Positions 2,515-57,999 are shown, counted from the stretch's first letter. The stretch is 64,000 nt of DNA from an uncultured Myxococcia bacterium (GCA_942493285.1 OW818691.1:8030532-8094531); one strand, 5' to 3'. The notes: generated by a model not told the origin, from the letters alone. Numbers and translations are program-made.

Positions 2515-3933
2515 TCAACCGCGCAGGCCCGAGGCGGCCTCGGCGACCATCATGTAGCCGATGATCCGCTCGTCGGGCTTGGCCAACGTATGTGCCATCG
2601 CGAGCGTCTCGACGGGGTCCGCCAATGCCATCGAGCGCAGCGTCCGCGCGAGCCAGGGGGCTTCGACTTGGGCCTTCAACGAGCGCTTCGCCTCGGCCGT
2701 GAAGAGCGACGCGTTACGCTCGGGGACACTCAGGCACGACTCGGCGAGCGCCGATGCGACCAGCGCGCGTGCGCCTCCGAGCGGCCACCTCGCGGTCTGC
2801 TCCGAGATGAGTGTCATAGCCGCAGAGCGGTCGGACTGGGGCAGCGCTTCGATTGACGAGGCCGCCTCGAAGACGAGGTGGGTGCGCTCGCTCGGGTCCT
2901 TCAGGAGCTTACGATCACCGACCAGTTGTTCGAATGTCTCGGTCCAACGTGTGAGCCCGAGTCGCGCCGCCCCGAGCAGGACGAGGCGATAGAGTCGCAC
3001 CCGCGCATCGACTTCGAGGGCCGTCGCGAGCGCTTTGTATACACGTTGCGATGCCGCCTGCGCGGCCGTCCGGTCGCCGGTCACGGCCCAAATCCCAAAG
3101 AGCTGCGCGTCCAGCGCGCCCGGCCACAGCGGCTCGTTCCTGACCTCGGGCTCGGTGCTTTTCGCGAGCGTCGCGACGGCGTCGAGGTCGAGCCCTATCG
3201 GCGAAGCGATCGCCAACTCGAACAGCGCGTGCATCCGCAACGCGGGCAGTCGGATCGTCTCCACCACCTCGAGGCACGGCGAGTCGAGGTGCGACTTCAC
3301 GATGGTCACCCGCACCTGGTCGAGCCCGATGTCGCCCTGCGTGTCCGCCGTATCGCGCAGTCGCTCCGGCCCGCTGAGCCCCGGGCCTGCGGCGAGGGCC
3401 GCTGCCGCTTCAGGGTCAACGTCGGCAAAGAGCTCGGTCACAAAGGCGTTTGCCAGAGTCGGCTGCGAAGGCACTCCCCACTGCACGGCCAGCTCGAGCG
3501 CGCGCTGCACCTTCAGGTCCCGCACCCCGATCGTCTTTATTCGGGACGCCGCGTCATCGCCGGCCCAGACCGCGAGCGCCAGCTCCGCCGACCGCAGTGC
3601 AGACGGCTCTGCATTCTCATGAGCCGGCAGACCTCCCAGGTGGCGCTTCACGGCAGCGGACATCCGACCCGAAGGTGCGGCACCCCGCAGCGGACGGCCC
3701 GCGGGTACACGAAGCGCCGATGCCGCATACGCCAGGGCACGTGTGACAGCCGACGTGTCGAGACCCGCCCAGTCGTTTTCGACTTCATCGAGCGCCGCGT
3801 CGCCCAATACACGCAGCCGAGTGCCGAGCTGTCTCAGGCTCATCCGCGAGGCGCGGCCTTCGACCGTGTCTGCCTCGGCCAGCGCCGCGAGTGCCACACC
3901 TGCGATGTTCGTTGCTGGGGTTTCGCCATTCAT
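2515..3933 (-). CDS. Hypothetical protein (472 aa), Ala/Leu-rich, probably alpha-helical repeat
   Basis: Long ORF with high GC3 and convergent arrangement with the upstream gene. No recognisable motif. Confidence 0.5.
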   Translation of the reverse strand: MNGETPATNIAGVALAALAEADTVEGRASRMSLRQLGTRLRVLGDAALDEVENDWAGLDTSAVTRALAYAASALRVPAGRPLRGAAPSGRMSAAVKRHLGGLPAHENAEPSALRSAELALAVWAGDDAASRIKTIGVRDLKVQRALELAVQWGVPSQPTLANAFVTELFADVDPEAAAALAAGPGLSGPERLRDTADTQGDIGLDQVRVTIVKSHLDSPCLEVVETIRLPALRMHALFELAIASPIGLDLDAVATLAKSTEPEVRNEPLWPGALDAQLFGIWAVTGDRTAAQAASQRVYKALATALEVDARVRLYRLVLLGAARLGLTRWTETFEQLVGDRKLLKDPSERTHLVFEAASSIEALPQSDRSAAMTLISEQTARWPLGGARALVASALAESCLSVPERNASLFTAEAKRSLKAQVEAPWLARTLRSMALADPVETLAMAHTLAKPDERIIGYMMVAEAASGLRG

Positions 3934-4019
3934 GGACGCATCCTAACCCAAAGCGCGCGACCTGGCCCCAATCACGTCGCTCGCTTGACCTCGCTGACCA
4001 AACGTCCCACATCAAGACC

Positions 4020-4565
4020 ATGGAATCTCTCGAGCTCACCGTGAACCTCGCGCCTGCACTCGCAACCCCCGGGATGCGGGTCGGCGTGGTCTATCGCCGC
4101 TGGGATGGCGCGCCCATCGAACGCCTCGCGGTCGCCGCCGAGCCAGGCACATCCATGGTCGTGCCCGAGCCGGAGGTCGAGGTCCGCACGGAGCTTCCGG
4201 TCGAGCTCGGCGGGCCCTGGTCTTTCGCGCTGGGCTACCTCGTCGTCATCGACCCGACCCTCTCGGCCGAGCGTGACACGACCGACCCGCTCAAAGCGAT
4301 CCGGTTTGCCGCCCCCGACCGCCGGGTCCTCTGGACGTCGGGCCCGTTCCCGGCAGAGGCCTTTGCGCGTATGGCCTCGGACCCGAGCTTGTCACCGGCC
4401 GAGGTCGCCGCCCTGGCCGACCAGCTCGCCGCGTTTTTGCCCGGCCTCATGCTCGCGCGGACGACGCTCAGGCGCCGTTCACTCGTCGGCTTCGAACGAC
4501 TCGACACGGCCACGCTCGAGCTCGGGCTGGTCGATTCGGGGGCCTGGCCGCCGACCTGGTTCTGA
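4020..4565 (+). CDS. Hypothetical protein (181 aa; start chosen at MESLELTVN)
   Basis: ORF 3891..4565, internal ATG at 4020 chosen to avoid overlap with the convergent upstream gene. GC3-biased. Confidence 0.45.
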   Translation: MESLELTVNLAPALATPGMRVGVVYRRWDGAPIERLAVAAEPGTSMVVPEPEVEVRTELPVELGGPWSFALGYLVVIDPTLSAERDTTDPLKAIRFAAPDRRVLWTSGPFPAEAFARMASDPSLSPAEVAALADQLAAFLPGLMLARTTLRRRSLVGFERLDTATLELGLVDSGAWPPTWF

Positions 4566-4634: not shown

Positions 4635-6983
4635 TCAGACGACGATGGTCGGAAGGGTCGGCTCGAGGATGTACCCGCCGTCGCTTCGGATCAGCACGCT
4701 CGCAAGGCCCATCTTCCGAAGGGTCCCAATAGCCGTGTAGACCCGGTCGGCCGCAGCTTCGGTGATGAGCCGCTCGCCGGGCCAGCCAGCCGCCGCGAGG
4801 TCATTCGTCGTCGCCGCGATGCCGGGACGCGCAAGCCGCAGGTCTATCAGATATGAGAGGACACGCCGCAGTGGGGGCCGCGTCTTGAGGTCGACGCGCG
4901 GGCCCCCAGGTGGCTCGAACCAGTAGGCCCCCACGCCCACCTGGAGCGTGCCCTGGGCCGACGTGGACCCGACACCCGGGAGGGCGTCGAGTCGTTCACG
5001 GACCTGGCCCAACGTGCGTTGGCGCCCGGCGTTCATCGCCAGTGCCATGGCCTCTTCGAGCAGGGTTCGCGCCAGACTTGACTGGCCGCGGAGCCGAGCG
5101 ATTTCGGCGCGGACGAGGTGGACCTCGACGGTCGCCTGTTGATCACCGACGAGCCGCGCGAGCCCGTCTGCTTCCATGGCCGAGGCCTCCGCCAAACCCA
5201 TGTCGCCGCACGACACCGCGCAGGTGGCTTCCCGGGTCAGGATCTTGGTTCTCAGGAGGGGATCGCCGATGCGCACTGCCAGGTCTCGAGCTTGCGCAAA
5301 GCGCAAGAGCGCCGTTTCATGGTCGCCGCGCTCGACGGCGGCGAACGCGAGATTGGTGACGGCCAGCGTTTCGATTCGCAGGGCGCCACAGAACCGCGCG
5401 GCACCTAGCGCTTCGAGGTACGAGGTGTGTGCCTCTTCGACCCGGCCCGTCATGAGAGCCGCCGAGCCATAGTGGAGCGCTGCCCAGGCCGCGAGGACTG
5501 CAACGCCCTTCGCCTGTGCGGCGACCTCTCGGCACAGTACCAGCGCGCGCTCCCCGCGGTTGGATTCCCGGTCGATGGCGCTCATGACGAGAGAGGCCTC
5601 GAGTTGGTCGCGCTCACTGCCGAATTTCCTGGCACATTCGATGAGTGCAAGGGTGTCGGCCTCGGCCTCGGCGAGTCGACCCTGCAGGTAACGAAGGCGT
5701 GCCCTCGCGTTCATCAAGCGCACGACGCCGCGCCCGCTCATGTCACTCTCGGCCGGACCCATGGCACGTCCGAGCGCACGGCTCAGGATAGCATCGGCGG
5801 CCTCGCCGTTGCGGCCCGACAAGTGGCAGGCGAGTGCCAGGGCAAGCGGCACGAGGTGTTCGAGGTCACCGCTCGCGAACGCGTCGTCGTGTGCGGCGAA
5901 CAGGTCGTCGGCCAGTCGTTCGAAGGTGGCCCGGGCCCGGCTCGGGTCACCATCGAGCAGGTCGGGCAGGGCGGCCTCACACTCGGCCGCGAGCACTTCG
6001 CGATGCCGTTCGTGGTCGGACTCGTCCTGGAGCGATGCTGCAAAGCAGCGCACGGCGTCGTAGAGGCGAAAACCCTCGGCCACGAGTGACGACGCCACGA
6101 GGCGCTCGAGACCCGCGACGGTGTCCACGAGGGTGCGGCCGGAGAGGCGCGTTGCGAGGTCGAGGTCGAAGCGACCGGCCACGGTCGAGAGGCGCACGAG
6201 CAGGTTGCGGTCGGGCAGGGTGAGGCGGTCGAAGGACCAGGCGACCGTATCTGCAAGGCTGTGGTGGCGAGGCTCGGCGTCGACCGTCTCACGTTTGAGC
6301 GCAAGCAGGGTCGACGGTGCGCTCGTGAGGTGCTCGGCCAGGTCGAGGTGGGCGTGACTCGCGTACAGCTCGATGGCCAGCGGTAGGCCGTCGAGGCGGG
6401 CGACGAAACGTGTGTCCAGGTCGGCCACCAGGTCCGGACGGCGTGCCCCGACACAGCGCTCGAAAAGGGCCTTCGCGTCTTCCACGTTCAGGCCGCCGAG
6501 TGGGATGACCTGCTCCACCGCGAGGTCGAGTGGGCGGCGCGAGGTCGCGAGCCAGACTGCATCGGGACACGCCTCGAGCCAATCGGCGAGCCTGCGTCTG
6601 AGCGCAAAGGCGTCGTCGCGCGCGACATCGAGCCCATCGGCAGCGTCGAGCACGGTCAGGGTCCGTCCACGGGCCGCGAGTCGCTCGGCGAAGGTGTGTC
6701 GGTTGGATGCGCCCAGAGCGATGGCGATGGCGTCCAGCGCCGCGAGCAGGTCTCTACGCGGGCCGAGGTCGACCCAGGCGACCCCACCCGGAAAGCAGTC
6801 GCCCAGGTTCGCCGTGACCGCGCGTGCGAGCGTCGACTTGCCGACCCCACCCGGGCCGACGAGCGTCACGAGTCGCCCCGTTTCCGACAGCACCGCGGCG
6901 CGTGTGCGGTCGAGCTCCTGGCGACGGCCGATGAGCGGAAGGACCATGGTCGACCCTTCGCAGGTCGCCCTCGCCGCGGTCAA
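4635..6983 (-). CDS. STAND-type NTPase (P-loop/NB-ARC-like) with TPR-like helical repeats and a C-terminal OmpR/PhoB-type winged-helix DNA-binding domain; putative transcriptional regulator
   Basis: Walker A GPGGVGKSTLAR near the N-terminus and Walker B-like LTVLDAADG. The long Ala/Leu-rich middle region is TPR-like. The C-terminus LRRVLSYLIDLRLARPG...AAADRVYTAIGTLRKMGL...LIRSDGGYILEP matches the trans_reg_C wing motif (RLRkKl...i.tvrg.GY.l). Confidence 0.7.
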   Translation of the reverse strand: MTAARATCEGSTMVLPLIGRRQELDRTRAAVLSETGRLVTLVGPGGVGKSTLARAVTANLGDCFPGGVAWVDLGPRRDLLAALDAIAIALGASNRHTFAERLAARGRTLTVLDAADGLDVARDDAFALRRRLADWLEACPDAVWLATSRRPLDLAVEQVIPLGGLNVEDAKALFERCVGARRPDLVADLDTRFVARLDGLPLAIELYASHAHLDLAEHLTSAPSTLLALKRETVDAEPRHHSLADTVAWSFDRLTLPDRNLLVRLSTVAGRFDLDLATRLSGRTLVDTVAGLERLVASSLVAEGFRLYDAVRCFAASLQDESDHERHREVLAAECEAALPDLLDGDPSRARATFERLADDLFAAHDDAFASGDLEHLVPLALALACHLSGRNGEAADAILSRALGRAMGPAESDMSGRGVVRLMNARARLRYLQGRLAEAEADTLALIECARKFGSERDQLEASLVMSAIDRESNRGERALVLCREVAAQAKGVAVLAAWAALHYGSAALMTGRVEEAHTSYLEALGAARFCGALRIETLAVTNLAFAAVERGDHETALLRFAQARDLAVRIGDPLLRTKILTREATCAVSCGDMGLAEASAMEADGLARLVGDQQATVEVHLVRAEIARLRGQSSLARTLLEEAMALAMNAGRQRTLGQVRERLDALPGVGSTSAQGTLQVGVGAYWFEPPGGPRVDLKTRPPLRRVLSYLIDLRLARPGIAATTNDLAAAGWPGERLITEAAADRVYTAIGTLRKMGLASVLIRSDGGYILEPTLPTIVV

Positions 6984-7017
6984 TATTCATCCAGGTTCGT
7001 TCCGGCGGCCGGGCCGA

Positions 7018-8853
7018 TCACGGCGCCTCGTCGCCCCACAGGTCGGTGGTGCCAAACCAGTATTGGACCGCCTGCGGCCGCATCGTGAACTTGAGCGGAA
7101 GGCTCCGCTCGATGCAGCTCAAGTCGAGCTCGGCCCTCGGGTCGGCGATGAACTGGACGAAGAGCTCCATGCCACACGAGGTCGTCGGGTCGTCGATGAG
7201 CTGGCCCTGGCCGAGCACGCTGTGGCCATGGCCCGGGAGCTCGAGGTAGTGCTGATGCTCAGCGGTCAGGTGGTCGACGATGCGGCGCGCGTAGGTCGGG
7301 GGTGTGGCCGGGTCATAGTCGGCGTTCATCGCCAGGATAGGCAGGTCGCTCTTGAACCAGCGCCCCGCGAGCGGCTCGGTGTAGCGCGGCCAACCGGCGG
7401 TCTGCCAACGCGCATTGTTCGACACGCCGCGGCACGAACGTGTGCCGGCCCAGCGCTCGGCGAGCTCTTCCGGGCTCGGGTCGGCCGGCTCCCACATCTC
7501 GGAGATCAAGATGTTGATCGCCAGCGGGAACGAGTAGCCAAGCGTCCCGTCGGCCTGGAAGGGCGGGCCTGGCGTGGGCACGGATCCCGACATCGCACCC
7601 GGGTCGAAGCCGAAGTTGCGCTCATAGATTTTGCGCACGAAGGTCACATCGTCCGGGTCGCAGCGCAGGTAGCGTCGCACCAGGGCGGGGACGCCGCGGC
7701 GGGCACCGTAGTGGAACATCATGATGCCGAGGTTGGTGCGCAACAGGAGCACGTCGGTCTCGGGGTCGGGGGTGATGGGGCAGTGGCCGGCGGCGACCTG
7801 GACGAACAGCTTGCCGAGGGCTTCCCACGGGCCGAGCTCGGGGCTGAACCGGGTGCTGCAGTCGGGGTCGGTCTCGCAGTTGGCGAGTATTCGTTCGGCC
7901 TCGGCATTCTCCCAGAGGTCTTGCTCCGACAGGAAGCAGTCGTCCGCGCTGCAGATCGAGTCGAAGACGACCGCGTCGACGAGCCCGCTCGGGTCGCCCG
8001 CATCGTCGAGGGCGTGGGCCAGCAGGAGGTAGCGGTTGGCGAGATAGGTGCCGTACGAGACGCCCAGGAACACGACTTCGTCGGTGGCCGGATGGACTGC
8101 CTGAACGAGGCCGACGAGGTCGCGGGCGGCCTGGGTGGTCGAGAAGTGGGCGAGCTTGTCGGCGCCCCAGGTCTGCACCACCGAGTCGCGGCAATAGGGC
8201 CATTCGCCTTCGGTGACCTGGACGCCACCTTGTGAGAACGGGGCTTCCTGGGTGGGGCAGCCGAGCCGGGTCGAGCGTCCTGTCCCGCGGTGGTCTGGCA
8301 TATAGATGTCGAGGCCCGGGTCGCGGCGCGCCAAGACGAGGGCGGTGGCCTCTGCGTCTGAGCCCGCTTGTCCGGGGCCTCCCATGAGGAACCACATCGC
8401 GCGGCGCGGGGCGTCCGGTTCGCCCGGTGCGACCGGTGCGACCTGATTCTGGCCTCGCAGGCGCTTCACGAACAGCGAGATGGACTCGCCGTCGGGGGCC
8501 TTCCAATCGAGCGGGACCTGGACCTCGGCGCACTCGACACGCGGGTCGTTTGCCCCGACGATGGTGTTGCATGGCGTCCATGTGACGGTCGGTGCGGGCG
8601 CTACCATCGGGTCGACCGGGAGCGCGACCTCGACGTCACCATCGGCAGTCGTATCCGAGGCCTCGAGCCCGTCGTCATCGGGCGTGGCGTTCGTTTCGGG
8701 CGTGTCGCCCATTTCCAGCGTGTCGCCCGTCTCTAACGCGTCGTTCGAATCGGGCGTGTCCGAGCTTCGTTCGGCATCGGCGCAACCGCCAAAGAGGACC
8801 AGGGCAATGAGGAGTCTTCGCATGCCCCGAGCATCGTTGCCGGCTCGGCCCAA
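7018..8853 (-). CDS. Secreted alpha/beta-hydrolase lipoprotein, peptidase S33 (prolyl/tripeptidyl aminopeptidase)-like
   Basis: Signal peptide with lipobox (MRRLLIALVLFGGC). Asp/Glu/Thr-rich linker. GxSxG nucleophile elbow GVSYGTY and an overall alpha/beta-hydrolase pattern with C-terminal His. Confidence 0.7.
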   Translation of the reverse strand: MGRAGNDARGMRRLLIALVLFGGCADAERSSDTPDSNDALETGDTLEMGDTPETNATPDDDGLEASDTTADGDVEVALPVDPMVAPAPTVTWTPCNTIVGANDPRVECAEVQVPLDWKAPDGESISLFVKRLRGQNQVAPVAPGEPDAPRRAMWFLMGGPGQAGSDAEATALVLARRDPGLDIYMPDHRGTGRSTRLGCPTQEAPFSQGGVQVTEGEWPYCRDSVVQTWGADKLAHFSTTQAARDLVGLVQAVHPATDEVVFLGVSYGTYLANRYLLLAHALDDAGDPSGLVDAVVFDSICSADDCFLSEQDLWENAEAERILANCETDPDCSTRFSPELGPWEALGKLFVQVAAGHCPITPDPETDVLLLRTNLGIMMFHYGARRGVPALVRRYLRCDPDDVTFVRKIYERNFGFDPGAMSGSVPTPGPPFQADGTLGYSFPLAINILISEMWEPADPSPEELAERWAGTRSCRGVSNNARWQTAGWPRYTEPLAGRWFKSDLPILAMNADYDPATPPTYARRIVDHLTAEHQHYLELPGHGHSVLGQGQLIDDPTTSCGMELFVQFIADPRAELDLSCIERSLPLKFTMRPQAVQYWFGTTDLWGDEAP

Positions 8854-8891
8854 CGCATCCGAAACTTCCCAAAATCACCGGTCGCACCCGT

Positions 8892-11129
8892 TCAGGAAGG
8901 CGGCCCGCCCCGTCGAACCATCACCGTCCGCAGCTCGGACGTATAGTGCCCGCCGGGACCGCGCAGCCAACACTGTTCTGGCGCGGGCCACATCTCCGAC
9001 AACGTCAGCGTCTCGCCGCGCCCGAGCGACCAGAGCGCCAGCGCCATCGAAATCCCCGACCACCAGTCGATGAGGATCGGCTTCGGCTCGCTCTCCACCC
9101 GCATGAACATGAAACGCGGCACGTGCTCAACCGCCAGCCCCGAAACCCTGGCCAACGCCCCCGCGACATCACCTGCCGACTTCACCTCGTCGGGCTTCAA
9201 TACGAACCGCCGCCGATGCACGACGAGCCCCCCGTAGCTGAGCCGCGGCAACGCCTCGACCGGTCGCCAGTCGGGCCCGGCGAGCCAACTCCCGAGGTCG
9301 AGCGTCGCCACCGAATACACAGGCGAGGCCTGATGCAGCCGCGCCGTCCGCGTCAGCGGCGCGACGTCGATCATGTTGGCCACATCGACCACATTGGCCA
9401 CATTGGGCACATCGGCGATCTCATTCATATGACTCGGCACGACAAACGCGAGGCCTTCCCCACTCGCCCCTCTCGAATAGACCGCGAGCTCCGCCAGCGT
9501 CCCGCGCCGCTCGGGTGGCTCTTTGGCCAGCCCCGACAACTCGAGCCCGACTGCACCCAGGTCCACCCCGACCGAGATGAAGCTGTGGTCCCAGCTCACC
9601 GGGAAGGCCGCCTTCGCCGGCGCCGTCAGCCCTTCCAAGAACCGCGCGCTCGCCGCCACAACCTCATCGCATGCGGCCAACGGCGGCAACAGACACCCGG
9701 TCAGGTGTGGAAGGTGATGCGCCTCTGCCAGAATGAACCTCGTTTCGTGTGCAGTCGGGTCAGCCGCCACCATGAAGTCCGGGTTCGCGTACGCCGTCCC
9801 GACCTTCGCACCCAGCCCACCAAGCAACCTTCCGACCTCGGCCGATACCTCGAGCCGCGCCTCGACCTCACCGGCCGCGATGACCCGATCGACCTGTGCC
9901 CGCAGCTCAGTCTTGATCCCCTTCAAGGCCTCACGAATGACCCGCGCTTCAGCCGGCGCCGCCAGCTCCAACGCCATCGGGTCTTTCGCTATCTCGGCCA
10001 GCACCTCGCGCCACAAGACGGGCTCATCCCTCGAGCTCTCCCACGTGCGTTCGAACCACGCGGCGAACGTCAGCCGCTCGGCCAGCTGGTTCAACAACGA
10101 CAGCTCGAGAAACGGCCCCGCCACGGTCTGCAGCTCCGCCGTCCACACCTTCGGAAACCCGATGACCGTCCCCGTCCGATCGGCCTGCTCATGCAGCGGC
10201 GTCCGGCTCGCATAGAACTCACCTTCATGCCGCGACGGCGCCTCACCGAGCATCGCCGTCAGCTCGGCCTCATGCGCTGCCAGCATCGCCCGCCTTTCAT
10301 CGGGCTTGCCAGCGGTCGCCTCGAACGCCGCGCGCCCCTCTTCGAGCCGCATGAAACGCCCAATCCAAGCCTCCCGCTCCGCCGACTCCGGCGCCGACCT
10401 CAGCACCGCCACCGCCGCCCCGACCGGGTCGACGAGCCCGCTCGGCAAATAATCCGGCCCGACCACCTCGGGCTCTCCCGACCGCTTGAACCCACGCCCG
10501 CCCGGCTCCCACACGACACCATCCGCATCGGCCCCCGGCGCCCGCCGAAACGCCCTTTCAATCCCCGGCCACAACCCCGCCGCGACGAGGTCCTCGACGG
10601 CCGTGCTCAACAGCTTCTCCACCAACCACTGCGTCGAGAACGCGCGCCGCCCAGCCTCGACCGGCAACACCGTCCCGGCATCGAAGTCGACCTCGAAGCT
10701 CCCCGCGGCCACCGCCCCAAAGAAGCTCGTCGAGTCGTTCTTCGCCGTCAGCCGCTGCAGAAACCGCCACAGGACCCGCTCACGTTTCTTGTCCTGCGCG
10801 TTGCGTCGCCCGGCCTCCGCATGTGCCCGCCACCCATCGAAGTTGCGGTCCACGAGTGGTGCTGACGTCATCAACGCCTCACGCGCGCCGGGATCACCGA
10901 GCGCCTCGAAAAGCCGCCGCCGCTCGTCCGCGACCCGCCCCGCATCCCCTGGGTCGGCCATCCCATCGAACGCCGCGACCCCTGCCATCCGCTCGACCGG
11001 AAACCCCGTCGCGCGCAGCAGAAAATACGGAAAGAATGTCCACGATCCAGGTCCCGACATCTGTCCCTCGTCGCTCGCCGAACGTGTCCGGCTCATCAGC
11101 GCCCACTCACTCGCGCCCCGACTGCTCAA
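8892..11129 (-). CDS. Lanthipeptide dehydratase (LanB) family protein with the N-terminal glutamylation domain only; the elimination domain is truncated after about 55 residues (small-LanB / PEARL-like)
   Basis: N-terminal WTFFPYFLLRATGFP matches the LanB f..vlRtPllP motif. RLTAKNDSTSFFGAVAAGSF matches the conserved RxxTPFGLFSSVGIGSF segment of SpaB/NisB. Near the C-terminus VPRFMFMRVESEPKPILIDWW matches the VRHFFMRYRDPKPHIRLRF start of Lant_dehydr_C, but the ORF ends about 55 aa later. Confidence 0.7.
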   Translation of the reverse strand: MSSRGASEWALMSRTRSASDEGQMSGPGSWTFFPYFLLRATGFPVERMAGVAAFDGMADPGDAGRVADERRRLFEALGDPGAREALMTSAPLVDRNFDGWRAHAEAGRRNAQDKKRERVLWRFLQRLTAKNDSTSFFGAVAAGSFEVDFDAGTVLPVEAGRRAFSTQWLVEKLLSTAVEDLVAAGLWPGIERAFRRAPGADADGVVWEPGGRGFKRSGEPEVVGPDYLPSGLVDPVGAAVAVLRSAPESAEREAWIGRFMRLEEGRAAFEATAGKPDERRAMLAAHEAELTAMLGEAPSRHEGEFYASRTPLHEQADRTGTVIGFPKVWTAELQTVAGPFLELSLLNQLAERLTFAAWFERTWESSRDEPVLWREVLAEIAKDPMALELAAPAEARVIREALKGIKTELRAQVDRVIAAGEVEARLEVSAEVGRLLGGLGAKVGTAYANPDFMVAADPTAHETRFILAEAHHLPHLTGCLLPPLAACDEVVAASARFLEGLTAPAKAAFPVSWDHSFISVGVDLGAVGLELSGLAKEPPERRGTLAELAVYSRGASGEGLAFVVPSHMNEIADVPNVANVVDVANMIDVAPLTRTARLHQASPVYSVATLDLGSWLAGPDWRPVEALPRLSYGGLVVHRRRFVLKPDEVKSAGDVAGALARVSGLAVEHVPRFMFMRVESEPKPILIDWWSGISMALALWSLGRGETLTLSEMWPAPEQCWLRGPGGHYTSELRTVMVRRGGPPS

Positions 11130-11138
11130 CCGCCCAAC

Positions 11139-12518
11139 TCAATCGCGCCCTTCACCGCGCTCCTCGAGCGCCCGCTTCAGCGTCCCCTTGAAGATGTCAC
11201 TGCCCACCTTCTCGAGGAACTTCCACCGTCTGAGCTCCACCCGCCGCTCGACCTCGGCCGGCGTCAGCTCGAGGCTCGTCACATGTTTGCCCACCTTCGA
11301 AAAGACATGCACCCGATGCTTCGGCCCGAGCACCACGACCGTGTCCTTGTGGTCGTCCCGAAAGAACCGCCCCTCACCCGCGGCCAGCGCATCCGCCACC
11401 GCCAAGGCCGTCGGCCGCTCTCCGCTCTGATGGCGCTCCTGCGCGTGTAAGGTCCTGTAATCACGGCTCTTCAGGACCCGCAGCACATCCCCACGCAGCC
11501 GCGTCAAGAGCTGCATGACCGGCTCATCGAGCTCGAAGTTCCCACCTTGGCGATGCGCCAATGCCGCCCGCCGCCCGAGCGCATCCACCCGCCCACGCGT
11601 CGCTCGTAACACCTTACGAAACGCCTCCGCCGGGCTCGTAGCGTCACTCGTCGCCGCCACCTCGGCGATGTCACCAACCGGCATGCCAATCACATTGAGC
11701 CGCATCCGCCGCGTCACCCCACCACGCGAATCGGGCTCGGTCGTCTCGACGATCTGCAGCGTCAGCGCCACCCGCTCCTCACGCGACCGGACCACGAAGT
11801 CTCGCGGCACGAGCCCGACCACGACCTGCCCCAACAGCCGATACGCCAGCCGCCCGCGATGGAACTCCGGCGACATCCCCGCATCGAGCTCGTGCGCATA
11901 GATGACCAGCGCCAACACCTCGGGCGAGTCCCCGAACAGGCGATCCACCCGCGGCTCCTGCCGCGCCAGACACAGGTTTGGAAAGCTCACCCACTCGGGC
12001 TTTCCATTGGCTGCATATCCCGCAAATACCTCGGTCGGCTTGCCCGGCCGCGAGTAGACCGACTCGGGCTGGTCGGTGAAGAAGCAGTAGACCGCCCCCT
12101 CGTTGAAGCTCGCGTGGTCGCGCTGCGCCACCTTCAGGTAGTCCCGCAGGTGCGTCACGAGGGCCGCCGCCCGAGCCTCAGACCGCCCCAGCACCAGCGG
12201 CACCAGCGTCGCCTCGGCGGCCAGCTCCACGGTCTTCGCGCCGACCCCCTCCTCGCGCGCAACCTTGGCGACCAACGCATCGATCGCCCGATAAGCCGCC
12301 TCCGCCAGCTCGGCCGCGCTTGTATTCGCAGCTCGACCCGGCCCGCGATCCCCAGACGCCCGCTCCGCTCGGACATCAACCGTGCGCATCGGCGCCTCGA
12401 CCGCACCCACGCCTTCGCCCGTCGCCCCCGCTGCAATCCCAGCCCCAGGGCCCTTCTTCTTTCTTCGCCGCCGCCGCTTTCGCGGCACCTCGGTCGGGCT
12501 CGGGTCGGTCTCACTCAT
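11139..12518 (-). CDS. Hypothetical protein (about 460 aa) with a poly-basic N-terminal tract (RKRRRRRKKKGPG); function unknown
   Basis: ORF 11139..12725. The start at 12518 (MSETDPS) is preceded by a purine-rich SD-like GGGGGA, but alternative upstream ATGs exist at 12575 and 12725. The stop is 10 bp upstream of the LanB-like start, on the same strand. Confidence 0.55.
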   Translation of the reverse strand: MSETDPSPTEVPRKRRRRRKKKGPGAGIAAGATGEGVGAVEAPMRTVDVRAERASGDRGPGRAANTSAAELAEAAYRAIDALVAKVAREEGVGAKTVELAAEATLVPLVLGRSEARAAALVTHLRDYLKVAQRDHASFNEGAVYCFFTDQPESVYSRPGKPTEVFAGYAANGKPEWVSFPNLCLARQEPRVDRLFGDSPEVLALVIYAHELDAGMSPEFHRGRLAYRLLGQVVVGLVPRDFVVRSREERVALTLQIVETTEPDSRGGVTRRMRLNVIGMPVGDIAEVAATSDATSPAEAFRKVLRATRGRVDALGRRAALAHRQGGNFELDEPVMQLLTRLRGDVLRVLKSRDYRTLHAQERHQSGERPTALAVADALAAGEGRFFRDDHKDTVVVLGPKHRVHVFSKVGKHVTSLELTPAEVERRVELRRWKFLEKVGSDIFKGTLKRALEERGEGRD

Positions 12519-12651
12519 GGCGGACGAACGTAATCCCCCCGCGTCCGCTTGAACAGGCCTGCCCCGTGCGCCCATACTGTGACCAGGCCGGCGCACCACG
12601 CCCGCCAACACTCGCAGCCGCGACCCCACGCCCCTACACCAAGGACCCGCC

Positions 12652-13725
12652 ATGGTGGCCCGCCTCGTCGAGACAGGATTCCGCGCCCAGAAGACCGCCC
12701 AGGCCCTCATCGCCGGCGTCTTCATGCGGGTCTTCCATCAGTTCCTATCAGCGAACCTCCCGCTCCCGAGCGCCGCCGAACGTAAAGCCCTCCAGCGCCG
12801 CTTCCGCACCCTGCTCACCGATGAGATCGACCACGTCCGCGCGGGCCGCTACCCGGAAAAGGTCCTCTTTCAGACCAACCTGCTCGAAACCCTACGCGCC
12901 CTCCCCGACGGCGTCATCGAGATGCCACGTGTCATCCTACGCGCCCGAAAGAACCGCTACGACGACCTGCCCGACCACGCCACCCGGCCAAATCCGACCG
13001 ACCTCTCACGGTTCCCACGCTACTACCGCCGCAACTTCCACTGGCAGTCCGACGGCTGGTTTTCTGACGAGTCCGCCAAACGTTACGACGCCGGCGTCGA
13101 CCTCCTCTTTGGAGGCACCACCGACATCATGCGCCGCATGATCGTCCCCGCCGTCGCCGCCTCCATCGCCAACACCTCTTCCCCTCGTGTCCTCGACATC
13201 GCGACCGGCACCGGCCGCTTCCTGGCCCAGCTCAACCTCGCCGCCCCGACCGCGCGCCTCTACGGCCTCGACCTCTCGCCCCATTACCTCAAGTTCGCCC
13301 GCACCTCGCTCGCCCATCTGGAAGACCTCTCGCTCGTCGCCGAAAACGCCGAGTCGATGCCCTTTGCCGACCAGACCTTCGACGCCGTGACGTCGGTCTT
13401 CCTCTTCCACGAGCTCCCTTCAGACGCCCGCCGCAACGTGGTCCGCGAAGCCTTCCGCGTGGTCCGCCCGGGCGGCCTCTTCGCCGTCCTCGACTCGGCC
13501 CAGCTCGACTCCGCGCCCGACATCGCCTTCTTTCTCGAGTCCTTCCCGAAGCTCTATCACGAGCCCTACTACAAGGGTTATCTACGCGACCCGCTGCCAT
13601 CTCTCCTCGCGGAGTGCGGCTTCGAGATCGTCGCCGACCGCGACCACTTCGTGTCACGCGCCGTCATCGCGCGCCGCCCCGCGTCCCCCGAGTCATCCGC
13701 GTCCCTCGAGTCAGCCGAATCATAA
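12652..13725 (+). CDS. Class I SAM-dependent methyltransferase
   Basis: Motif I VLDIATGTGRF, post-I acidic LYGLDLS, motif II/III region FDAVTSVFLFHEL...RPGGLF. About 150-aa N-terminal extension before the Rossmann fold. Confidence 0.8.
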   Translation: MVARLVETGFRAQKTAQALIAGVFMRVFHQFLSANLPLPSAAERKALQRRFRTLLTDEIDHVRAGRYPEKVLFQTNLLETLRALPDGVIEMPRVILRARKNRYDDLPDHATRPNPTDLSRFPRYYRRNFHWQSDGWFSDESAKRYDAGVDLLFGGTTDIMRRMIVPAVAASIANTSSPRVLDIATGTGRFLAQLNLAAPTARLYGLDLSPHYLKFARTSLAHLEDLSLVAENAESMPFADQTFDAVTSVFLFHELPSDARRNVVREAFRVVRPGGLFAVLDSAQLDSAPDIAFFLESFPKLYHEPYYKGYLRDPLPSLLAECGFEIVADRDHFVSRAVIARRPASPESSASLESAES

Positions 13726-14870
13726 TGCCGACCCCGATCACCACCGACACCCTCATCGTCGGCGCCGGCCCCTCGGGTCTCGCCGTCTCCGCTTGCCTGA
13801 AACACGCGGGCCACCCCCACCTGCTGCTCGAACGTGAGCCGACGCTGGCGTCCACCTGGCGCCGCCACTACGACCGACTCCACCTCCATACGGCCAAACA
13901 GTACAGCCACCTCCCGCATCACCCGATGCCGGACCACTTCCCGACCTACCCGTCTCGCGAACAGGTCGTCGCCTACCTCGACGAATATGCCAAAGCCCTC
14001 GAGCTCGAGCCCCGGCTCGGCGTTGCAATCACCCGCGCCGACTACACCTCCAACCACTGGCACCTCGAAGCCGCCGACACGACCACCTATCGCGCGCGCC
14101 ACCTCGTCGTCGCGACCGGCTACAATGCGACGCCCGTGACCCCGACCTGGCCCGGCCTCGACGCCTTTGCCGGCTCAGTCCTCCACTCGTCGACCTACAA
14201 GAACGGCGCCGACTTCGCAGGCCAATCGGTCCTCGTCGTCGGCTCTGGCAACTCGGGCGCCGAGATCGCCATCGACCTCTGGGAACACGGCGCCCGCCCC
14301 GCCATGGCCTTTCGTAGCCCCGTTCACGTCGTCCCTCGCGACGCCTTCGGCCTGCCATCCCAGACGCTGGCCATCGCCATGTCCCACCTCCCCTCCAAGC
14401 TTGCCGACAAGCTCTCGCTCCCGCTTCGCGACTTCGTCATCGGCGACCTCTCCAAATGGGGAATCCATCGCCCCAAAGCCGGCCCGGTCGAGCTCCTCGA
14501 GACCCGCGGCCGTGTCCCGCTCATCGACATCGGCACCATCGCCCTCATCAAACAAGGGGCGATCACCGTCTTCCCAAACATCTCGAAGATCGAACCATCG
14601 GCTGTCCACTTCGTTGATGGCCGCACCCAGACCTTCTCAGCCATCGTGCTCGCCACCGGCTACAAGACCAACCTGCGCAGCTGGCTCAACCCGCCGTCGA
14701 CCGCGCTGGACGACCGCGACCTCCCGAGGGTCCACGGCAAGGACGCTGGCCACCACCTCTACTTCCTCGGCTTCCGCAACCCGACGACCGGCAACCTGCG
14801 CGAGATCCACCTCGAAGCCAAACGCATCGCCGCATCCATCACGAAGGCTCCGCTCCATGCCCGGGTTTGA
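13725..14870 (+). CDS. Flavin-containing monooxygenase (class B FMO-like)
   Basis: FAD GxGxxG (GAGPSG) at the N-terminus, NADPH GxGxxG (GSGNSG) in the middle, and the FMO-identifying FxGxxxHxxxY motif (FAGSVLHSSTY). The ATG at 13725 overlaps the methyltransferase stop (ATAATG). Confidence 0.8.
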   Translation: MPTPITTDTLIVGAGPSGLAVSACLKHAGHPHLLLEREPTLASTWRRHYDRLHLHTAKQYSHLPHHPMPDHFPTYPSREQVVAYLDEYAKALELEPRLGVAITRADYTSNHWHLEAADTTTYRARHLVVATGYNATPVTPTWPGLDAFAGSVLHSSTYKNGADFAGQSVLVVGSGNSGAEIAIDLWEHGARPAMAFRSPVHVVPRDAFGLPSQTLAIAMSHLPSKLADKLSLPLRDFVIGDLSKWGIHRPKAGPVELLETRGRVPLIDIGTIALIKQGAITVFPNISKIEPSAVHFVDGRTQTFSAIVLATGYKTNLRSWLNPPSTALDDRDLPRVHGKDAGHHLYFLGFRNPTTGNLREIHLEAKRIAASITKAPLHARV

Positions 14871-15918
14871 CGCGGCGATCTGGCGCCACTGGCACCCGGT
14901 CCTCCTCGACCAGGACCTCGGCACCCGCCCCAAATCCGTGATGCTCCACGGCCAAGAGCTCGTGCTCTACCGCGCCCCATCGACCAACTCCGTCCACGCG
15001 CTGCACAACGTCTGTCCCCATCGCCGCGCTCGCCTCTCGGACGGCTGGGTGCAACCCCATGTCGCCGGCGCCCGCCTGGTCTGCCCCTACCACGGCTTCC
15101 AGTTCGCCCCCGACGGCCGCGGCGAGAGCCCCGGCACGCCGTCCGTCAAGCTCAACTGCACCTCGTTCGAGACCCGGCAGGCCTACGGCGCCATCTGGCT
15201 TCGTGCCCGCCCGACCTCCACCAACGACCCACAGGCCCCCGCCTCAGAGCCGACCGACTTCCCCGCCCTCGGCCTCCCCGGCTTCACCCAGGTCGCTTCG
15301 ATGAGCCACCTCATCGAGGCCCCGCTCGAGGTCGTCGTCGACAACTTCTGCGAGGTCGAACACACCCCGACGACCCACGCCCTCTTCGGCTACGACGCCG
15401 CGTCACTGCCCGACGTTCGTGTCACTCTCGAGTGCACCGACACAACGGTCCGCGTCGTCAACGAGGGCCGCCAGAAACCAATCCCTCGCCTCATCGAGCG
15501 GGCTTTTGGCATCCACACGGGCGACACCTTCATCGACGACTGGACGGTCCACTTCTCGCCCGTCCATATCGTCTACGACCAGTGGTGGCGCGACCCCACG
15601 ACCGAGGCCCCGCGGCCAATCCGCGTCCACCTCGGCGTCTTCTTCGTACCCGTCGACAACGACCAGACCCGACTCTACACCTTCGCCTTCAGCAACCGCC
15701 CACCGTCGCTCCTCGACCCGCTCTTGCGACCTCTCCTGCGCCGCATCGTCAACCACGAAGTCGTCCTCGACCAACGCCGGATCGAGCGCCTCGCCGACAC
15801 CAACCCCGACCTGCGCGGCACGCGCCTCGGCCGCTTCGACGCCGCTCTGCGCGAACACCGCAAGCGCATCGAACACATCTACCGTATGAGGCGCAACGAC
15901 CCCGGGTCTCCCGGCTGA
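14857..15918 (+). CDS. Rieske [2Fe-2S] non-haem iron oxygenase, alpha-subunit-like (VanA/PaO-type, single-component architecture)
   Basis: Rieske CxH...CxxH (CPHRRARLSDGW...CPYHGFQF) and a mononuclear iron ExxHx4H motif (EVEHTPTTH). The start at 14857 (MPGFDAAIW) overlaps the FMO 3' end by 14 nt; the longer ORF-track version (14167) is an antisense/overprinted extension. Confidence 0.75.
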   Translation: MPGFDAAIWRHWHPVLLDQDLGTRPKSVMLHGQELVLYRAPSTNSVHALHNVCPHRRARLSDGWVQPHVAGARLVCPYHGFQFAPDGRGESPGTPSVKLNCTSFETRQAYGAIWLRARPTSTNDPQAPASEPTDFPALGLPGFTQVASMSHLIEAPLEVVVDNFCEVEHTPTTHALFGYDAASLPDVRVTLECTDTTVRVVNEGRQKPIPRLIERAFGIHTGDTFIDDWTVHFSPVHIVYDQWWRDPTTEAPRPIRVHLGVFFVPVDNDQTRLYTFAFSNRPPSLLDPLLRPLLRRIVNHEVVLDQRRIERLADTNPDLRGTRLGRFDAALREHRKRIEHIYRMRRNDPGSPG

Positions 15919-15965
15919 CACTCCCGTCGTGTGCCTCGGTCTTGCGCAATCGTGTTGACTCCATG

Positions 15966-15995
15966 TGCGTAGCCAACTACGTAGTTGCCTACGCA
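15966..15995 (+). promoter_or_regulatory. 30-bp near-perfect palindrome TGCGTAGCCAACTACGTAGTTGCCTACGCA, candidate MarR operator overlapping a -35-like TTGACT (15955-15960)
   Basis: 28/30 positions self-complementary; immediately upstream of the marR start (16019). Confidence 0.5.
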
Positions 15996-16018
15996 ACGGA
16001 CACGGAGCGAGCCGACCC

Positions 16019-16558
16019 ATGAGACAAACACCTGGACGCACGCCCCGCTCACCCGCCGCGCGCGACTACCTCGCCTCGCTCGGTGCGCTGGCCTTGACCG
16101 CTCGCCTCAAGCGCCTGACCGACCGTCTCATGCACGACGCGCGCTCGCTCTACGAAGAGCTGGGTCTCGGCATCGAGCCCAACTGGCACCTCGTCTTCCT
16201 GCTCCTCGAAGAGCACGACACCATGACGGTCACCGAGATCACCGCGGCACTCGGCGTCGCCCACCCCTCGGTCGTCGCCATCACGACGAGAATGGTCGAA
16301 CGCGGCTACCTGAAGCAGCTCGCAAACCCCACCGACGGCCGCAGTAAACGCCTCCGGCTCACCGCCAAGGGGGGCTCCAAGCTCGCCGCCGCAAAACCCA
16401 TCTGGGAGGCGAGTCGCCTGGGCCTCGAAGGCCTCCTCACCGAGACGGGGGTCGACGTCCTGGCACTCGTCACGGCACTCGAGACCGCACTCGACCACCG
16501 GGGCTATCGCGAGCGCACGCTCGAGGCTCAGGACACCTCGACCCGAGACGACGCATGA
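16019..16558 (+). CDS. MarR-family transcriptional regulator
   Basis: Winged-HTH MarR core (TVTEITAALGVAHPSVVAITTRMVERGYL...DGRSKRLRLT). Start taken at MRQTPGRT, immediately downstream of a 30-bp palindromic operator. Confidence 0.75.
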   Translation: MRQTPGRTPRSPAARDYLASLGALALTARLKRLTDRLMHDARSLYEELGLGIEPNWHLVFLLLEEHDTMTVTEITAALGVAHPSVVAITTRMVERGYLKQLANPTDGRSKRLRLTAKGGSKLAAAKPIWEASRLGLEGLLTETGVDVLALVTALETALDHRGYRERTLEAQDTSTRDDA

Positions 16559-17073
16559 CACTCGTCATCCGCCCCGCCACACCAGATGACTTCGCCGCCA
16601 TCTGGCCCATCTTCGCCGCCATCGTCCGTCAGGGCGAGACCTACGCCTACGATCCTGAGACCACCATCGAACAAGCACACACAATCTGGATGGCGCCAAC
16701 CAACCAGACCTTCGTCGCCCAACGCTCCACCAACATCGTCGGCAGCTACATCCTGAAGCCCAACCAACTCGGCCTCGGCAACCACGTCGCCAACGCCGGC
16801 TTTATGGTCGACCCCAACGCCCACGGTCAGGGCATCGGCCGCACCATGGTCGAACACTGCCTGCATGAAGCCCGGGCCCAAGGCTATCGAGCCATGCAGT
16901 TCAACCTCGTCGTCGCCACCAACGTCGGGGCCGTCGCCCTGTGGCAATCGGTCGGCTTCGACATCGTCGGCACCCTCCCAGGCGCCTTTCGCCACCCACG
17001 CCTGGGCTACGTCGACGCCCACATCATGTTTCGCTCGCTGCTCGACCTCGACCCGCAGGACACCTCTATATGA
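16555..17073 (+). CDS. GNAT-family N-acetyltransferase
   Basis: About 170 aa with a GNAT fold and the acetyl-CoA binding motif (GQGIGRTMV). ATGA overlap with the marR stop. Confidence 0.75.
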   Translation: MTLVIRPATPDDFAAIWPIFAAIVRQGETYAYDPETTIEQAHTIWMAPTNQTFVAQRSTNIVGSYILKPNQLGLGNHVANAGFMVDPNAHGQGIGRTMVEHCLHEARAQGYRAMQFNLVVATNVGAVALWQSVGFDIVGTLPGAFRHPRLGYVDAHIMFRSLLDLDPQDTSI

Positions 17074-17594
17074 CGCCAAAGCCCCTCAGCCCCGACAACC
17101 CCGACAACCCCATCAACCCGATCAACCCGAGCAACCCGGACAACCCCATCAACCCGATCAACCCGGACAACCCCATCAACCCGGACAACCCCATCAACCT
17201 CATCAACCCCGACAACCCCATCCACCCCGACAACCTGATCAGGCCCATCAACCTCGCCGACAAGCTCGCCCAGTTCCAAGACCACTGGGCCCCACGCACG
17301 GTAGCCCGCGTCAACGACTACGACGTGCGCCTCGTCAAAGCCCACGGCGAGTTTGCCTGGCACTCCCACGCCGACACCGACGAGCTCTTCCTCGTCCTCG
17401 CCGGCACCCTCCACATCACCCTCGAATCGGGCACCGTCACCCTCAATCCCGGCGAGCTCCACGTCGTCCCCCGCGGCACCCGCCACCGTCCCTGGTCCGA
17501 ACACGGCGCAGAGCTCCTCCTCTTCGAACCCTCCACCGTCATCAACACGGGCGACACCCCCGGCGCCCTCACCGCTCCCCGCCGCGAGCTCTGA
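17070..17594 (+). CDS. Cupin-domain protein with an N-terminal (P-D-N-P-I-N)n hexapeptide repeat tract
   Basis: Cupin_2 motifs G(X)5HXH...(HSHADTDELFLVLAG...PRGTRHRP). The N-terminus is encoded by an 18-bp tandem repeat. ATGA overlap with the GNAT stop. Confidence 0.65.
   Translation: MTPKPLSPDNPDNPINPINPSNPDNPINPINPDNPINPDNPINLINPDNPIHPDNLIRPINLADKLAQFQDHWAPRTVARVNDYDVRLVKAHGEFAWHSHADTDELFLVLAGTLHITLESGTVTLNPGELHVVPRGTRHRPWSEHGAELLLFEPSTVINTGDTPGALTAPRREL
17088..17262 (+). repeat. Tandem 18-bp repeat (aaccccatcaacccggac, about 9 copies) encoding (PDNPIN)n
   Basis: Visible periodicity in the sequence; in frame with the cupin ORF. Confidence 0.8.
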
Positions 17595-17861
17595 CCCAGC
17601 CGCCCACCCGTCGGGCTTGACCGGCCAGTTCACATTGCCACCTCGCCGCCGCTCGCCCCCGCCGCCCCTCACATCCGCCGATCTCGAACCCGCAGAACCT
17701 CTTCCGCAAAGGCCATGCGCGTTGACATGACGGAGTTCCAGGGGCTATTCGACATGCCAACTTCGTTTCGGTCGACATCACCGCAGACGGATAGCCCACA
17801 CCACGGAGCCTCGCCTCAAACCGCGTCGCTCCTTCGGAAGTCACCTCGGGGGAGGGTCGTC

Positions 17862-18659
17862 ATGGTCTTCATCACCACCCAGACTACGCCGCGCGCAGTT
17901 CGGCTGGCCATGGCTTGCCTGGTGCTGGTCGCGGCAGGGTGCGGCGACGACGACAAGCGCCCGTTCGGCTCGTCCTGCGGCAGTGACGAGCAATGCGAAG
18001 GTGGTCTCTGCGTTGCACAGGTCTGCATCGACCCCGCCGGCGACGAAGACACAGATGGGCTCACCAACGGCCTCGAACGTCAGCTCGGCTCCGACGTGTT
18101 CGCTGCCGACACGGACGGTGACCTCATCGCCGACCGCGACGAGCTAGGCCCCGACTTCGCCCTCACCGACACCGACGCCGACACCATCCCCGACATCCTC
18201 GAGAGCGCAACGGGCGACACGGACGCCGACTGCATCACCGACCAGTACGATGCCGCCAACGACGTCCCCGACAACGATAAATCCCCTATGCTCTCGGTGG
18301 TTTGCCGGCGCGGCGGCATATGTCAGACCCAGCTCGCAGGGCTCGCCGTCGACTGCTCGACCGGCACCGCGGCCTGCGACTACTCCGGCATCACCGGCTT
18401 CGCCGACCCCGAAGCCGTCTGCGATGGGCGCGACGAGAACTGCGACGGCAGCATCGACGAAGCCTTCGCGGGCCAGGCTTGCGACACGACCGCCCGCCCA
18501 TGGCTCGCCCCCGGCAACGGCACCTACGCAGCCGGCAGCACCCGGTATCGCGCAGCACTCGGGTTTGGCCCGGTGCCCTCCAACATCGCGACCTCACCCC
18601 GCTATCGGGTCGAGGTCGGATTCTCACCTTCTCTTCTCTCGACCGAGGTCAGCCGATGA
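17862..18659 (+). CDS. Lipoprotein with thrombospondin-type-3-like calcium-binding Asp repeats and a Cys-rich CxxRDENCDG putative metal-binding motif
   Basis: Signal/lipobox MVFITT...LVLVAAGCGDDD. DTDGD/DTDAD/DxDxD repeats. The CDGRDENCDGSIDE motif is typical of myxobacterial surface proteins. Confidence 0.65.
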   Translation: MVFITTQTTPRAVRLAMACLVLVAAGCGDDDKRPFGSSCGSDEQCEGGLCVAQVCIDPAGDEDTDGLTNGLERQLGSDVFAADTDGDLIADRDELGPDFALTDTDADTIPDILESATGDTDADCITDQYDAANDVPDNDKSPMLSVVCRRGGICQTQLAGLAVDCSTGTAACDYSGITGFADPEAVCDGRDENCDGSIDEAFAGQACDTTARPWLAPGNGTYAAGSTRYRAALGFGPVPSNIATSPRYRVEVGFSPSLLSTEVSR

Positions 18660-25183: not shown

Positions 25184-25260
25184 AACCTCGGGGCGAAGGC
25201 GGGAGCCTCTACCGGAAACCACCCCTCGAGTCACGCCCTCGCTGCGAATCGCTACGAAGC

Positions 25261-49432: not shown

Positions 49433-49442
49433 GGTGAAGACT

Positions 49443-50558: not shown

Positions 50559-50559
50559 C

Positions 50560-53258: not shown

Positions 53259-53309
53259 TCGAGGTCGCGACTCTACCCAACCGTCGCGACAAGGCCCCGA
53301 GCCCCGCTC

Positions 53310-56557: not shown

Positions 56558-57999
<1,442 letters not shown>

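Follow-up and report, generated by a model that had tools for sequence, protein, structure and literature searches.

Positions 4635-17594 of a 64,000-nt stretch of DNA from an uncultured Myxococcia bacterium (GCA_942493285.1 OW818691.1:8030532-8094531; hereafter the window, G+C ~68%) encode a LanB-like enzyme, which an initial annotation had placed at the centre of a single accessory cluster for a natural product of the ribosomally made, post-translationally modified peptide (RiPP) or peptide aminoacyl-tRNA ligase (PEARL) type. On the best reading of our analysis, the functional unit is not the whole 13 kb but a two-gene operon encoding an arginine-rich partner protein (the basic protein) and a PEARL-like ligase, lying back-to-back with a coupled operon of methyltransferase (MT), flavin-dependent monooxygenase (FMO) and Rieske oxygenase genes. 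We suggest, tentatively and from sequence comparison, that the ligase is a PEARL-type enzyme that works without a recognition element and tails its partner protein as the most likely substrate.

The 722-aa ligase (8892-11060, minus strand) missed the 28-bit gathering threshold of the Pfam family Lant_dehydr_N (PF04738), at 18.1 bits for this form and 19.1 bits for the 8892-11129 ORF, with the sub-threshold match placing residues 79-169 on profile positions 2-90 of 649. NCBIfam gave no match, and the PDB yielded none to phmmer searches with the ligase, to its immediate-family profile (A1) or when the relative P0024 was used as a bridge. The structural comparison was clear. An AlphaFold2 model built on 22 homologues (predicted local distance difference test, pLDDT, 88; predicted TM-score 0.89) was searched against the PDB with Foldseek, and the top 11 matches were all LanB glutamylation domains (E 6e-19 to 6e-17, probability 1.00), led by TbtB (6e-19) and followed by MadB, MibB, NisB and GodF (6e-17), the next matches being weak ones to the ATP-grasp enzymes glutathione synthetase and RimK. 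Query-normalised TM-scores to the glutamylation domains of NisB, MibB and MadB were 0.55-0.64. In an HMMER search over 1.84 billion representatives, the ligase belonged to a separate small family, with ~20 representatives scoring above 350 bits, that borders a large superfamily of ~800-aa proteins (3624 matches at E ≤ 1e-3), and a broader profile from a 46-sequence alignment of ligase relatives (A3) reached TbtB (1.4e-46), GodF (6e-23) and MibB (1e-20) in the PDB. PF04738 was matched by 41 of these 46 relatives (best 3e-37), and the sister protein P0019 (39-42% identical; E 1.5e-115 to the window protein) scored 36.2 bits, above the cut-off. Because fold, A3 profile, PF04738-matching relatives and P0019 agree, the 722-aa protein is a very divergent member of the LanB-glutamylation/PEARL superfamily. 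Its close homologues form 24 clusters among 5.8 billion protein clusters, all from Myxococcota-type metagenome-assembled genomes (MAGs). The elimination domain (Lant_dehydr_C/SpaB_C) is absent, the chain stopping 11 residues past its Glu-x-Arg motif.

We then compared the conserved residues with those described for characterised enzymes. TbtB Arg743, Phe783 and Glu851 are common to all of them, and TglB Asp542 and Arg803 are conserved only in PEARLs, being Tyr and Leu in split LanBs (PMC11117183); further features described are an Arg near the N-terminus, an Arg that binds CCA, a conserved His and, as Glu813 and Arg815 in BhaB, a Glu-x-Arg pair (PMC11962472). In the 46-sequence ligase alignment, R103, K107, D428, H448, R606, R616, E709 and R711 are invariant, R16 and E446 are nearly so, and F652 is Phe or Tyr in 46/46; the catalytic residues are under clear purifying selection. 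R616 and F652 map to TbtB Arg743 and Phe783 in a hidden Markov model alignment, corrected for a 3-residue tag offset, which covers the preceding EMLPxP motif and ends just before the T-x-E-L-R motif. A forced alignment of this C-terminal ligase motif to TbtB stopped at TbtB residue 840; the Leu-for-Arg difference therefore rests on PMC11117183 and not on a direct view. By motif context and spacing rather than direct alignment, D428 and E709-x-R711 probably correspond to TglB Asp542 and Glu801-x-Arg803. Similarly, by motif, the invariant R103 and K107 (in YLQRFCAKND..SFFG) and the nearly invariant R16 (in FLLRxxGFP) stand at plausible positions for comparison with BhaB Arg208, which binds the tRNA 3'-CCA end, and with the N-terminal BhaB Arg34 and TglB Arg10. 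Because D428 and E709-x-R711 appear to match the reported PEARL-specific positions, we file the ligase as apparently PEARL-like in mechanism, with residues of the ATP-dependent PEARL type and not of the split-LanB type. The initial annotation had called the protein a LanB-family enzyme of the glutamylation-only, PEARL-logic kind: the family call stands by fold and deep profile and fails the strict Lant_dehydr_N test, and the second part agrees with the missing elimination domain and the seemingly PEARL-type residues.

The window's ligase clade has also lost an internal domain. The broad profile matches winged-helix proteins (ArsR/Lrp, PqqD, PbtF) over positions 240-390, and this region is the RiPP recognition element embedded in LanB-type enzymes. 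The spacing between W145 and L205 is 51-62 residues in 17/17 members of the clade; the same spacing is mostly ~95-115 (range 75-117) in P0019, in P0021-P0023 and in the ~800-aa relatives. This ~40-aa winged-helix deletion, which removes three helices, is absent from four of the five aligned sister sequences, the fifth (P0020, short at 603 aa) having a larger gap there. The weight of the loss is tempered because the element appears vestigial in BhaB and TglB, where the element-binding segment of the substrate is not needed (PMC11962472). These two enzymes recognise a C-terminal helix and tail, and a 14-mer tag suffices for the extension of eGFP, MBP and lysozyme (PMC11962472). Apart from the deletion, the window protein carries a specific insertion, VANVVDVANMIDVA, encoded by an in-frame 9-nt tandem repeat (9378-9416, minus strand; 4.3 copies by Tandem Repeats Finder) and modelled as a loop at residues 549-558 with pLDDT <50; segment 540-570 comprises 31 residues here versus 10-21 in relatives.

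The ligase is strictly linked to one neighbour. The basic gene lies immediately upstream in 9/9 close-clade contexts (window, L001, L003, L008, L015, L016/17, L018, L021 and L022), with a spacing from a 4-nt overlap to ~115 nt and overlapping stop and start codons in L001 and L003. The gene downstream of the ligase differs almost everywhere (hydrolase, 247-aa open reading frame (ORF), cadherin, M10 peptidase, redoxin). Furthermore, the five-gene core of basic, ligase, MT, FMO and Rieske genes recurs in independent MAGs at ~55-65% identity with different flanks, a recurrence not due to chance.

The partner is an arginine-rich protein of ~46 kDa whose disordered N-terminal tail contains PRKRRRRRKKK, a poly-Arg tail conserved across the basic-protein family. 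The folded core of its model resembles no solved structure, including the NisB, MibB and MadB chains with elimination domains. It is followed by a small C-terminal beta domain, a terminal amphipathic helix and a short acidic tail. One loop, RRTxHAxERHxSGERPT, is invariant across the family yet modelled at low confidence. Distant members carry a CxxCx4CxH zinc-knuckle-like motif (YCFxCxSxxCxH; alignment A2), which is degenerate (YCFFTDQPESVYS) in the window's clade. The family is conserved in Myxococcota and in some Planctomycetota. Three candidate leads were rejected. In L024 and L006, whose basic genes are unpaired, the genes that follow (674 and 303 aa) are not cryptic ligases (hhalign probability <1%); the distant relative P0247 (1503 aa), considered as a Rosetta-stone link between the two partners, joins radical-SAM and LanB-like parts and contains no basic-protein fusion; and for a defence-system or phage origin of the pair, PADLOC and PHROGs gave nothing and viral contigs held no homologues.

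For the chemistry, the substrate and the role of the oxidases and methyltransferase, we infer the following route. The ligase would act as a peptide aminoacyl-tRNA ligase: a carboxylate would be phosphorylated with ATP via Asp428, Glu446, His448, Glu709 and Arg711, the 3'-CCA end of an aminoacyl-tRNA would be bound by Arg103, Arg616 and Phe652, and an amide bond would then be made between the activated carboxylate and the amino acid. The co-expressed partner would be the substrate via its C-terminal amphipathic helix and flexible tail, a protein-sized scaffold thereby replacing the short precursor. The appended residue might be tailored by the MT, FMO and Rieske enzymes, which is the weaker link of the scheme. 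A modifier-substrate relation fits because the ligase is never found without the partner, and the partner is often found without the ligase. A whole protein is a feasible substrate given the partner's conserved C-terminal helix and short tail, in comparison with BhaB and TglB recognition (PMC11962472).

Several observations weigh against this proposal. The C-terminal tail of the partner varies in length and sequence, and among the paired partners no shared C-terminal residue or tail length emerged. The partner family is ~3x larger than the ligase clade, and the basic gene occurs without a ligase in L005, L006, L023 and L024, L023 being syntenic with L003 with the ligase simply missing; because it is present without the ligase, the basic protein has a function of its own. 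The 9/9 linkage could reflect one ancestral insertion and not nine independent events. The trio of MT, FMO and Rieske genes is found without a ligase in L023 and the ligase without the trio in L021. Finally, the equivalence of residues to those of TglB and BhaB is a match of motif context and spacing, and is correspondingly provisional.

To set the pair in its genomic context, we called genes by third-position G+C and annotated the products mainly with Pfam. Every ORF named in the initial annotation was recovered, together with its domain families and translational couplings:

4635-6983, minus strand: STAND NTPase with an NB-ARC/NACHT P-loop, MalT-type TPR and an OmpR-like C-terminal tail (Pfam, NCBIfam).
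7018-8853, minus strand: alpha/beta hydrolase with a TAP-like C-terminus (Pfam), a probable lipoprotein.
8892-11060, minus strand: PEARL-like ligase, 722 aa (LanB-glutamylation-type fold and family profile).
11139-12518, minus strand: partner (basic) protein, 459 aa, matching no family or known fold.
12519-12651, no strand: divergent intergenic region of 133 nt between the basic-protein and methyltransferase genes (sequence).
12652-13725, plus strand: class I S-adenosylmethionine-dependent methyltransferase (UbiE-like) with a ~140-aa N-terminal extension (Pfam, NCBIfam).
13725-14870, plus strand: class B flavin-dependent monooxygenase (Pfam FMO-like, Pyr_redox_3; PDB 8z12, 1.6e-41).
14857-15918, plus strand: Rieske non-haem iron oxygenase of the VanA/DdmC/SxtT type (Pfam Rieske and VanA_C; PDB DdmC, 1.6e-12).
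15965-16558, plus strand: MarR protein (Pfam).
16555-17073, plus strand: GNAT protein (Pfam).
17070-17594, plus strand: cupin (Pfam).

The ligase most likely starts at the ATG at 11060, preceded by GAGGGA, which gives 722 aa, the length of the deposited protein P0001; a longer ORF form spans 8892-11129. The start of the basic protein at 12518 (MSETDP..., 459 aa) matches its homologues, a longer ORF (11139-12725; isoelectric point 10.3) extending beyond it. The intergenic region between the two divergent operons, presumably holding the promoters of both flanking genes, has counterparts that measure 281 nt (L001), 105 nt (L003) and 207 nt (L023). On the plus strand, MT and FMO have TAATG in common, FMO and Rieske overlap by 14 nt, and 4-nt overlaps join MarR to GNAT and GNAT to cupin. 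The similarities of MT, FMO and Rieske in NCBIfam and the PDB are of a generic tailoring type only (UbiE-like; ArsO-like at half length; DdmC/SxtT). The N-terminus of the hydrolase, MRRLLIALVLFGGC, resembles a lipoprotein signal; the gene is probably co-transcribed with the ligase here (38-nt gap), outside the conserved unit. Further in-frame tandem repeats (units of 9, 18 or 27 nt across all such sites, that of the ligase included) lie inside coding regions at 8678-8728 (hydrolase N-terminal linker), 13679-13717 (methyltransferase C-terminal tail) and 17090-17253, where ~16 copies code NPDNPINPI-type repeats in the N-terminal region of the cupin ORF.

Across related loci, the MT-FMO-Rieske operon and the basic gene point away from each other in the window, L001, L003 (where Rieske is lacking) and L023; five further short contigs carry both an MT and a basic gene, and the trio is absent from L021, L024, L005 and L006. 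It is a frequent, dispensable neighbour that follows the basic gene and not the ligase, as L023 (trio without ligase) and L021 (ligase without trio) show. Genes flanking the core are in part old. L001, L003, L022 and L023 have in common Usp, a sigma-54 response regulator, RsmB/F, a PAS kinase, Dicty_CTDC, MscL and cadherin, and window positions 53310-61900 hold a block of RsmB/F methyltransferase, Usp, sigma-54 response regulator, PAS histidine kinase, methyltransferase and amidohydrolase genes. In L001, L003 and L023 the MT-FMO operon has such a block immediately beside it; the window's block lies ~38 kb from the module and is partly inverted, evidence of rearrangement within an ancestral neighbourhood. 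The core thus sits in an old, ancestral Myxococcota chromosomal neighbourhood, and the label of an accessory region does not apply. Sister-clade ligases (37-42% identity) are found in other settings, namely tandem pairs, beside 2-oxoglutarate oxygenase, HAD and glycosyltransferase genes, or beside PhoD. As separate observations on these relatives, the LanB-like genes of L010 (3425-7725) and L012 (7995-12304) form translationally coupled tandem pairs, and no obvious precursor gene was seen in L010, L012 or around P0247.

Four other explanations were weighed against a ligase that tails its partner. In the first, the ligase would have as its substrate a small-molecule carboxylate that MT, FMO and Rieske make or modify, and the basic protein would serve as an accessory factor (e.g. 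a tRNA or nucleic-acid binder via its poly-Arg tail, which is conserved in the family). Non-ribosomal products are documented PEARL substrates (PMC11212132), the window ligase has no recognition element, the three enzymes resemble small-molecule tailoring enzymes, and they stand beside the pair in three of the four assessable contexts (window, L001 and L003). However, L021 and L022 have the pair with neither MT nor FMO nearby, L023 has the trio and the basic gene without the ligase, and the methyltransferase belongs to a very large family (>1159 homologues at E ≤ 1e-20), most of which is unlinked to the basic/ligase system. We consider this explanation rather unlikely.

Equally modest in probability is the view that the pair is linked by co-transcription only, through inherited synteny of one Myxococcota lineage, with the ligase substrate encoded elsewhere. 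The flanking genes common to L001, L003, L022 and L023, which partly recur in the window at 53-62 kb, show vertical inheritance; the ligase is cleanly missing from the syntenic L023; and sister-clade ligases occupy unrelated contexts. Against this, basic gene and ligase remain neighbours through repeated changes of both flanks (with differing downstream genes in the window, L001, L003, L015, L021 and L022), in L001 and L003 their stop and start codons overlap, the loss of the recognition element coincides with pairing, and the catalytic residues are under clear purifying selection.

That the whole of 4635-17594 is one RiPP/PEARL-type cluster, with extension of a short scaffold by the LanB-like enzyme, tailoring steps by MT, FMO, Rieske, GNAT and cupin, release through the S33-like peptidase and control by STAND and MarR, now seems improbable. 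The four minus-strand genes (basic, ligase, hydrolase, STAND) are separated by gaps of 78, 38 and 34 nt, which makes co-transcription plausible, the fold and residues of the enzyme fit a PEARL, and PEARL pathways are known to use flavoenzymes, methyltransferases and a releasing protease. However, homologues of the hydrolase, STAND, MarR, GNAT and cupin genes were found in no related locus (by tblastn for MarR, GNAT and cupin); these outer genes stand beside the core in this window only and are missing even from L015, where a 92%-identical ligase is followed by two genes unrelated to any of the five. Co-localisation in relatives, proposed for the entire set, was thus borne out for the basic/ligase pair and often for MT-FMO-Rieske, and not for the peptidase, STAND, MarR, GNAT and cupin. 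In addition, the strand skew at third codon positions (GC3 skew) flips sharply at ~8.87 kb, the ligase/hydrolase junction, and a recent juxtaposition is therefore suggested. An unrecognised precursor or scaffold peptide, which the initial annotation had allowed for, also lost ground: no gap in 4635-17594 exceeds 133 nt, which therefore leaves no room for a precursor peptide gene, the gaps around the pair are not conserved in relatives, and L001, L003, L021 and L022 show no conserved space or ORF flanking it that could be a short scaffold or precursor gene. YcaO and LanC, reported as lacking, are indeed absent from the window genes scanned, as is SpaB_C. Taken as a generic RiPP cluster, the region has no precursor, a deleted recognition element, and a protease and regulators that are not conserved. 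A naive reading of 'LanB + oxidases + peptidase + regulator' over-calls the boundaries of such a cluster.

Least probable of all is a glutamylation-only, split-LanB-type enzyme that esterifies Ser/Thr with Glu-tRNA on the way to dehydration, elimination falling to the basic protein as a partner of a new type: split LanBs (TbtB and GodF, of thiopeptide and goadsporin pathways) do resemble the window ligase in their stand-alone glutamylation-type domain and Arg/Phe/Glu triad, TbtB is its best structural match and the upstream partner has roughly the size expected of an elimination protein, but Asp428 and Arg711 replace the reported Tyr and Leu, the basic-protein model is unlike any solved structure, NisB, MibB and MadB chains included, and there is no separate elimination protein, YcaO, cyclase or precursor gene and no recognition element.

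Returning to the reading of a ligase that tails its partner, we compared the window enzyme with other known systems. PEARLs (TglB, BhaB1/4/5/7, AmmB1-4) likewise have a LanB-glutamylation-type domain and no elimination domain; by motif and spacing, the window ligase appears to have Asp, Glu-x-His, an Arg/Phe adenine pair and a C-terminal Glu-x-Arg where their ATP-grasp-like site is described. By motif, an invariant Arg in its R-x3-K...FFG helix lies at a plausible position for the CCA-binding Arg. The FMO and methyltransferase genes nearby recall several PEARL pathways. Unlike PEARLs, the window ligase falls below the Pfam cut-off (19 bits), is ~100 aa shorter, with a shorter N-terminus and the winged helix of the recognition element deleted, and is always found behind a ~46-kDa partner with no short scaffold peptide gene; its clade (~24 sequence clusters) occurs in Myxococcota-type MAGs only. 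Class I dehydratases (NisB, MibB, MadB) have the same N-terminal glutamylation-domain fold; by contrast, the window ligase has no C-terminal elimination domain, LanC or LanA and shows an ATP-type active-site signature. ATP-grasp ligases that tail proteins (RimK, with ribosomal protein S6 as its substrate, and tubulin tyrosine ligase) offer a functional analogy only, which depends on the substrate proposed here. PEARLs have been proposed as descendants of ATP-grasp enzymes, and glutathione synthetase and RimK are the next, weak, fold matches to the window ligase; these ligases use free amino acids instead of aminoacyl-tRNA, and there is no sequence-level relationship.

Several further features of the window were recorded. 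A strong local strand asymmetry at ~8870-22000, weaker to ~34000 and with a second patch at 47600-54700, is independent of gene orientation: the ligase and basic genes, both on the minus strand, have a plus-strand GC3 skew of -0.39 to -0.69 (own-strand G3 far above C3), and the skew is just as negative for MT, FMO, Rieske, MarR, GNAT and cupin on the plus strand. The asymmetry is only faint at homologous loci, and it may mark a rearrangement breakpoint. A 688-aa ORF at 18302-20368 (plus strand) has a collagen-like G-x-y stretch with 7.6 copies of a 60-nt (20-aa) repeat, AITDAKLALNAVTTTKVADL, and matches phage tail-fibre PHROGs (best 3.8e-32) and no Pfam family; upstream of it, the ORF at 17715-18659 encodes an acidic lipoprotein-like protein with a weak MopE motif. 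An 1863-aa protein encoded at 25261-30852 (minus strand) combines an AAA domain with DUF7902 and DUF3686 ('ATPase involved in DNA repair', E 5e-190); the two ORFs that follow, of 765 and 666 aa, have no family match. Long, well-supported ORFs with high third-position G+C and no Pfam family make up an unusually high proportion (27-2486, 2515-3933, 3891-4565, 20718-22340, 23234-25234, 30857-33154 and 47651-52395), among them three successive genes on the plus strand at 47.6-52.4 kb. The window contains neither tRNA genes nor Rfam families. A homologue of MiaE, the tRNA-(ms2io6A)-hydroxylase, at 36456-37034 (minus strand; E 1e-43) adjoins a GT4 glycosyltransferase gene; it is a further tRNA-linked gene of the window, though probably one with no relation to the ligase finding.

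To our knowledge, characterised PEARLs act only on short ribosomal scaffold peptides or small non-ribosomal products, and we know of whole-protein extension by PEARLs so far only with engineered tags. The combination of pairing with a partner protein and loss of the recognition element is an architecture for which we found no description in a limited literature search on PEARLs. For genome mining, it matters that this ligase subfamily is invisible at Pfam and NCBIfam thresholds. A bolder claim, which we hold to be rather unlikely at present, is that the clade represents a natural protein-tailing PEARL, carrying out ribosome-independent, tRNA-dependent addition of an amino acid to a protein after translation, with the added residue perhaps oxidised and methylated by FMO, Rieske and MT. 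In conclusion, the pair of basic protein and ligase offers a directly testable case of tRNA-dependent, ribosome-independent amino-acid addition as a natural protein modification and, if the proposal is true, would provide the first functional handle on an uncharacterised family of arginine-tailed proteins.

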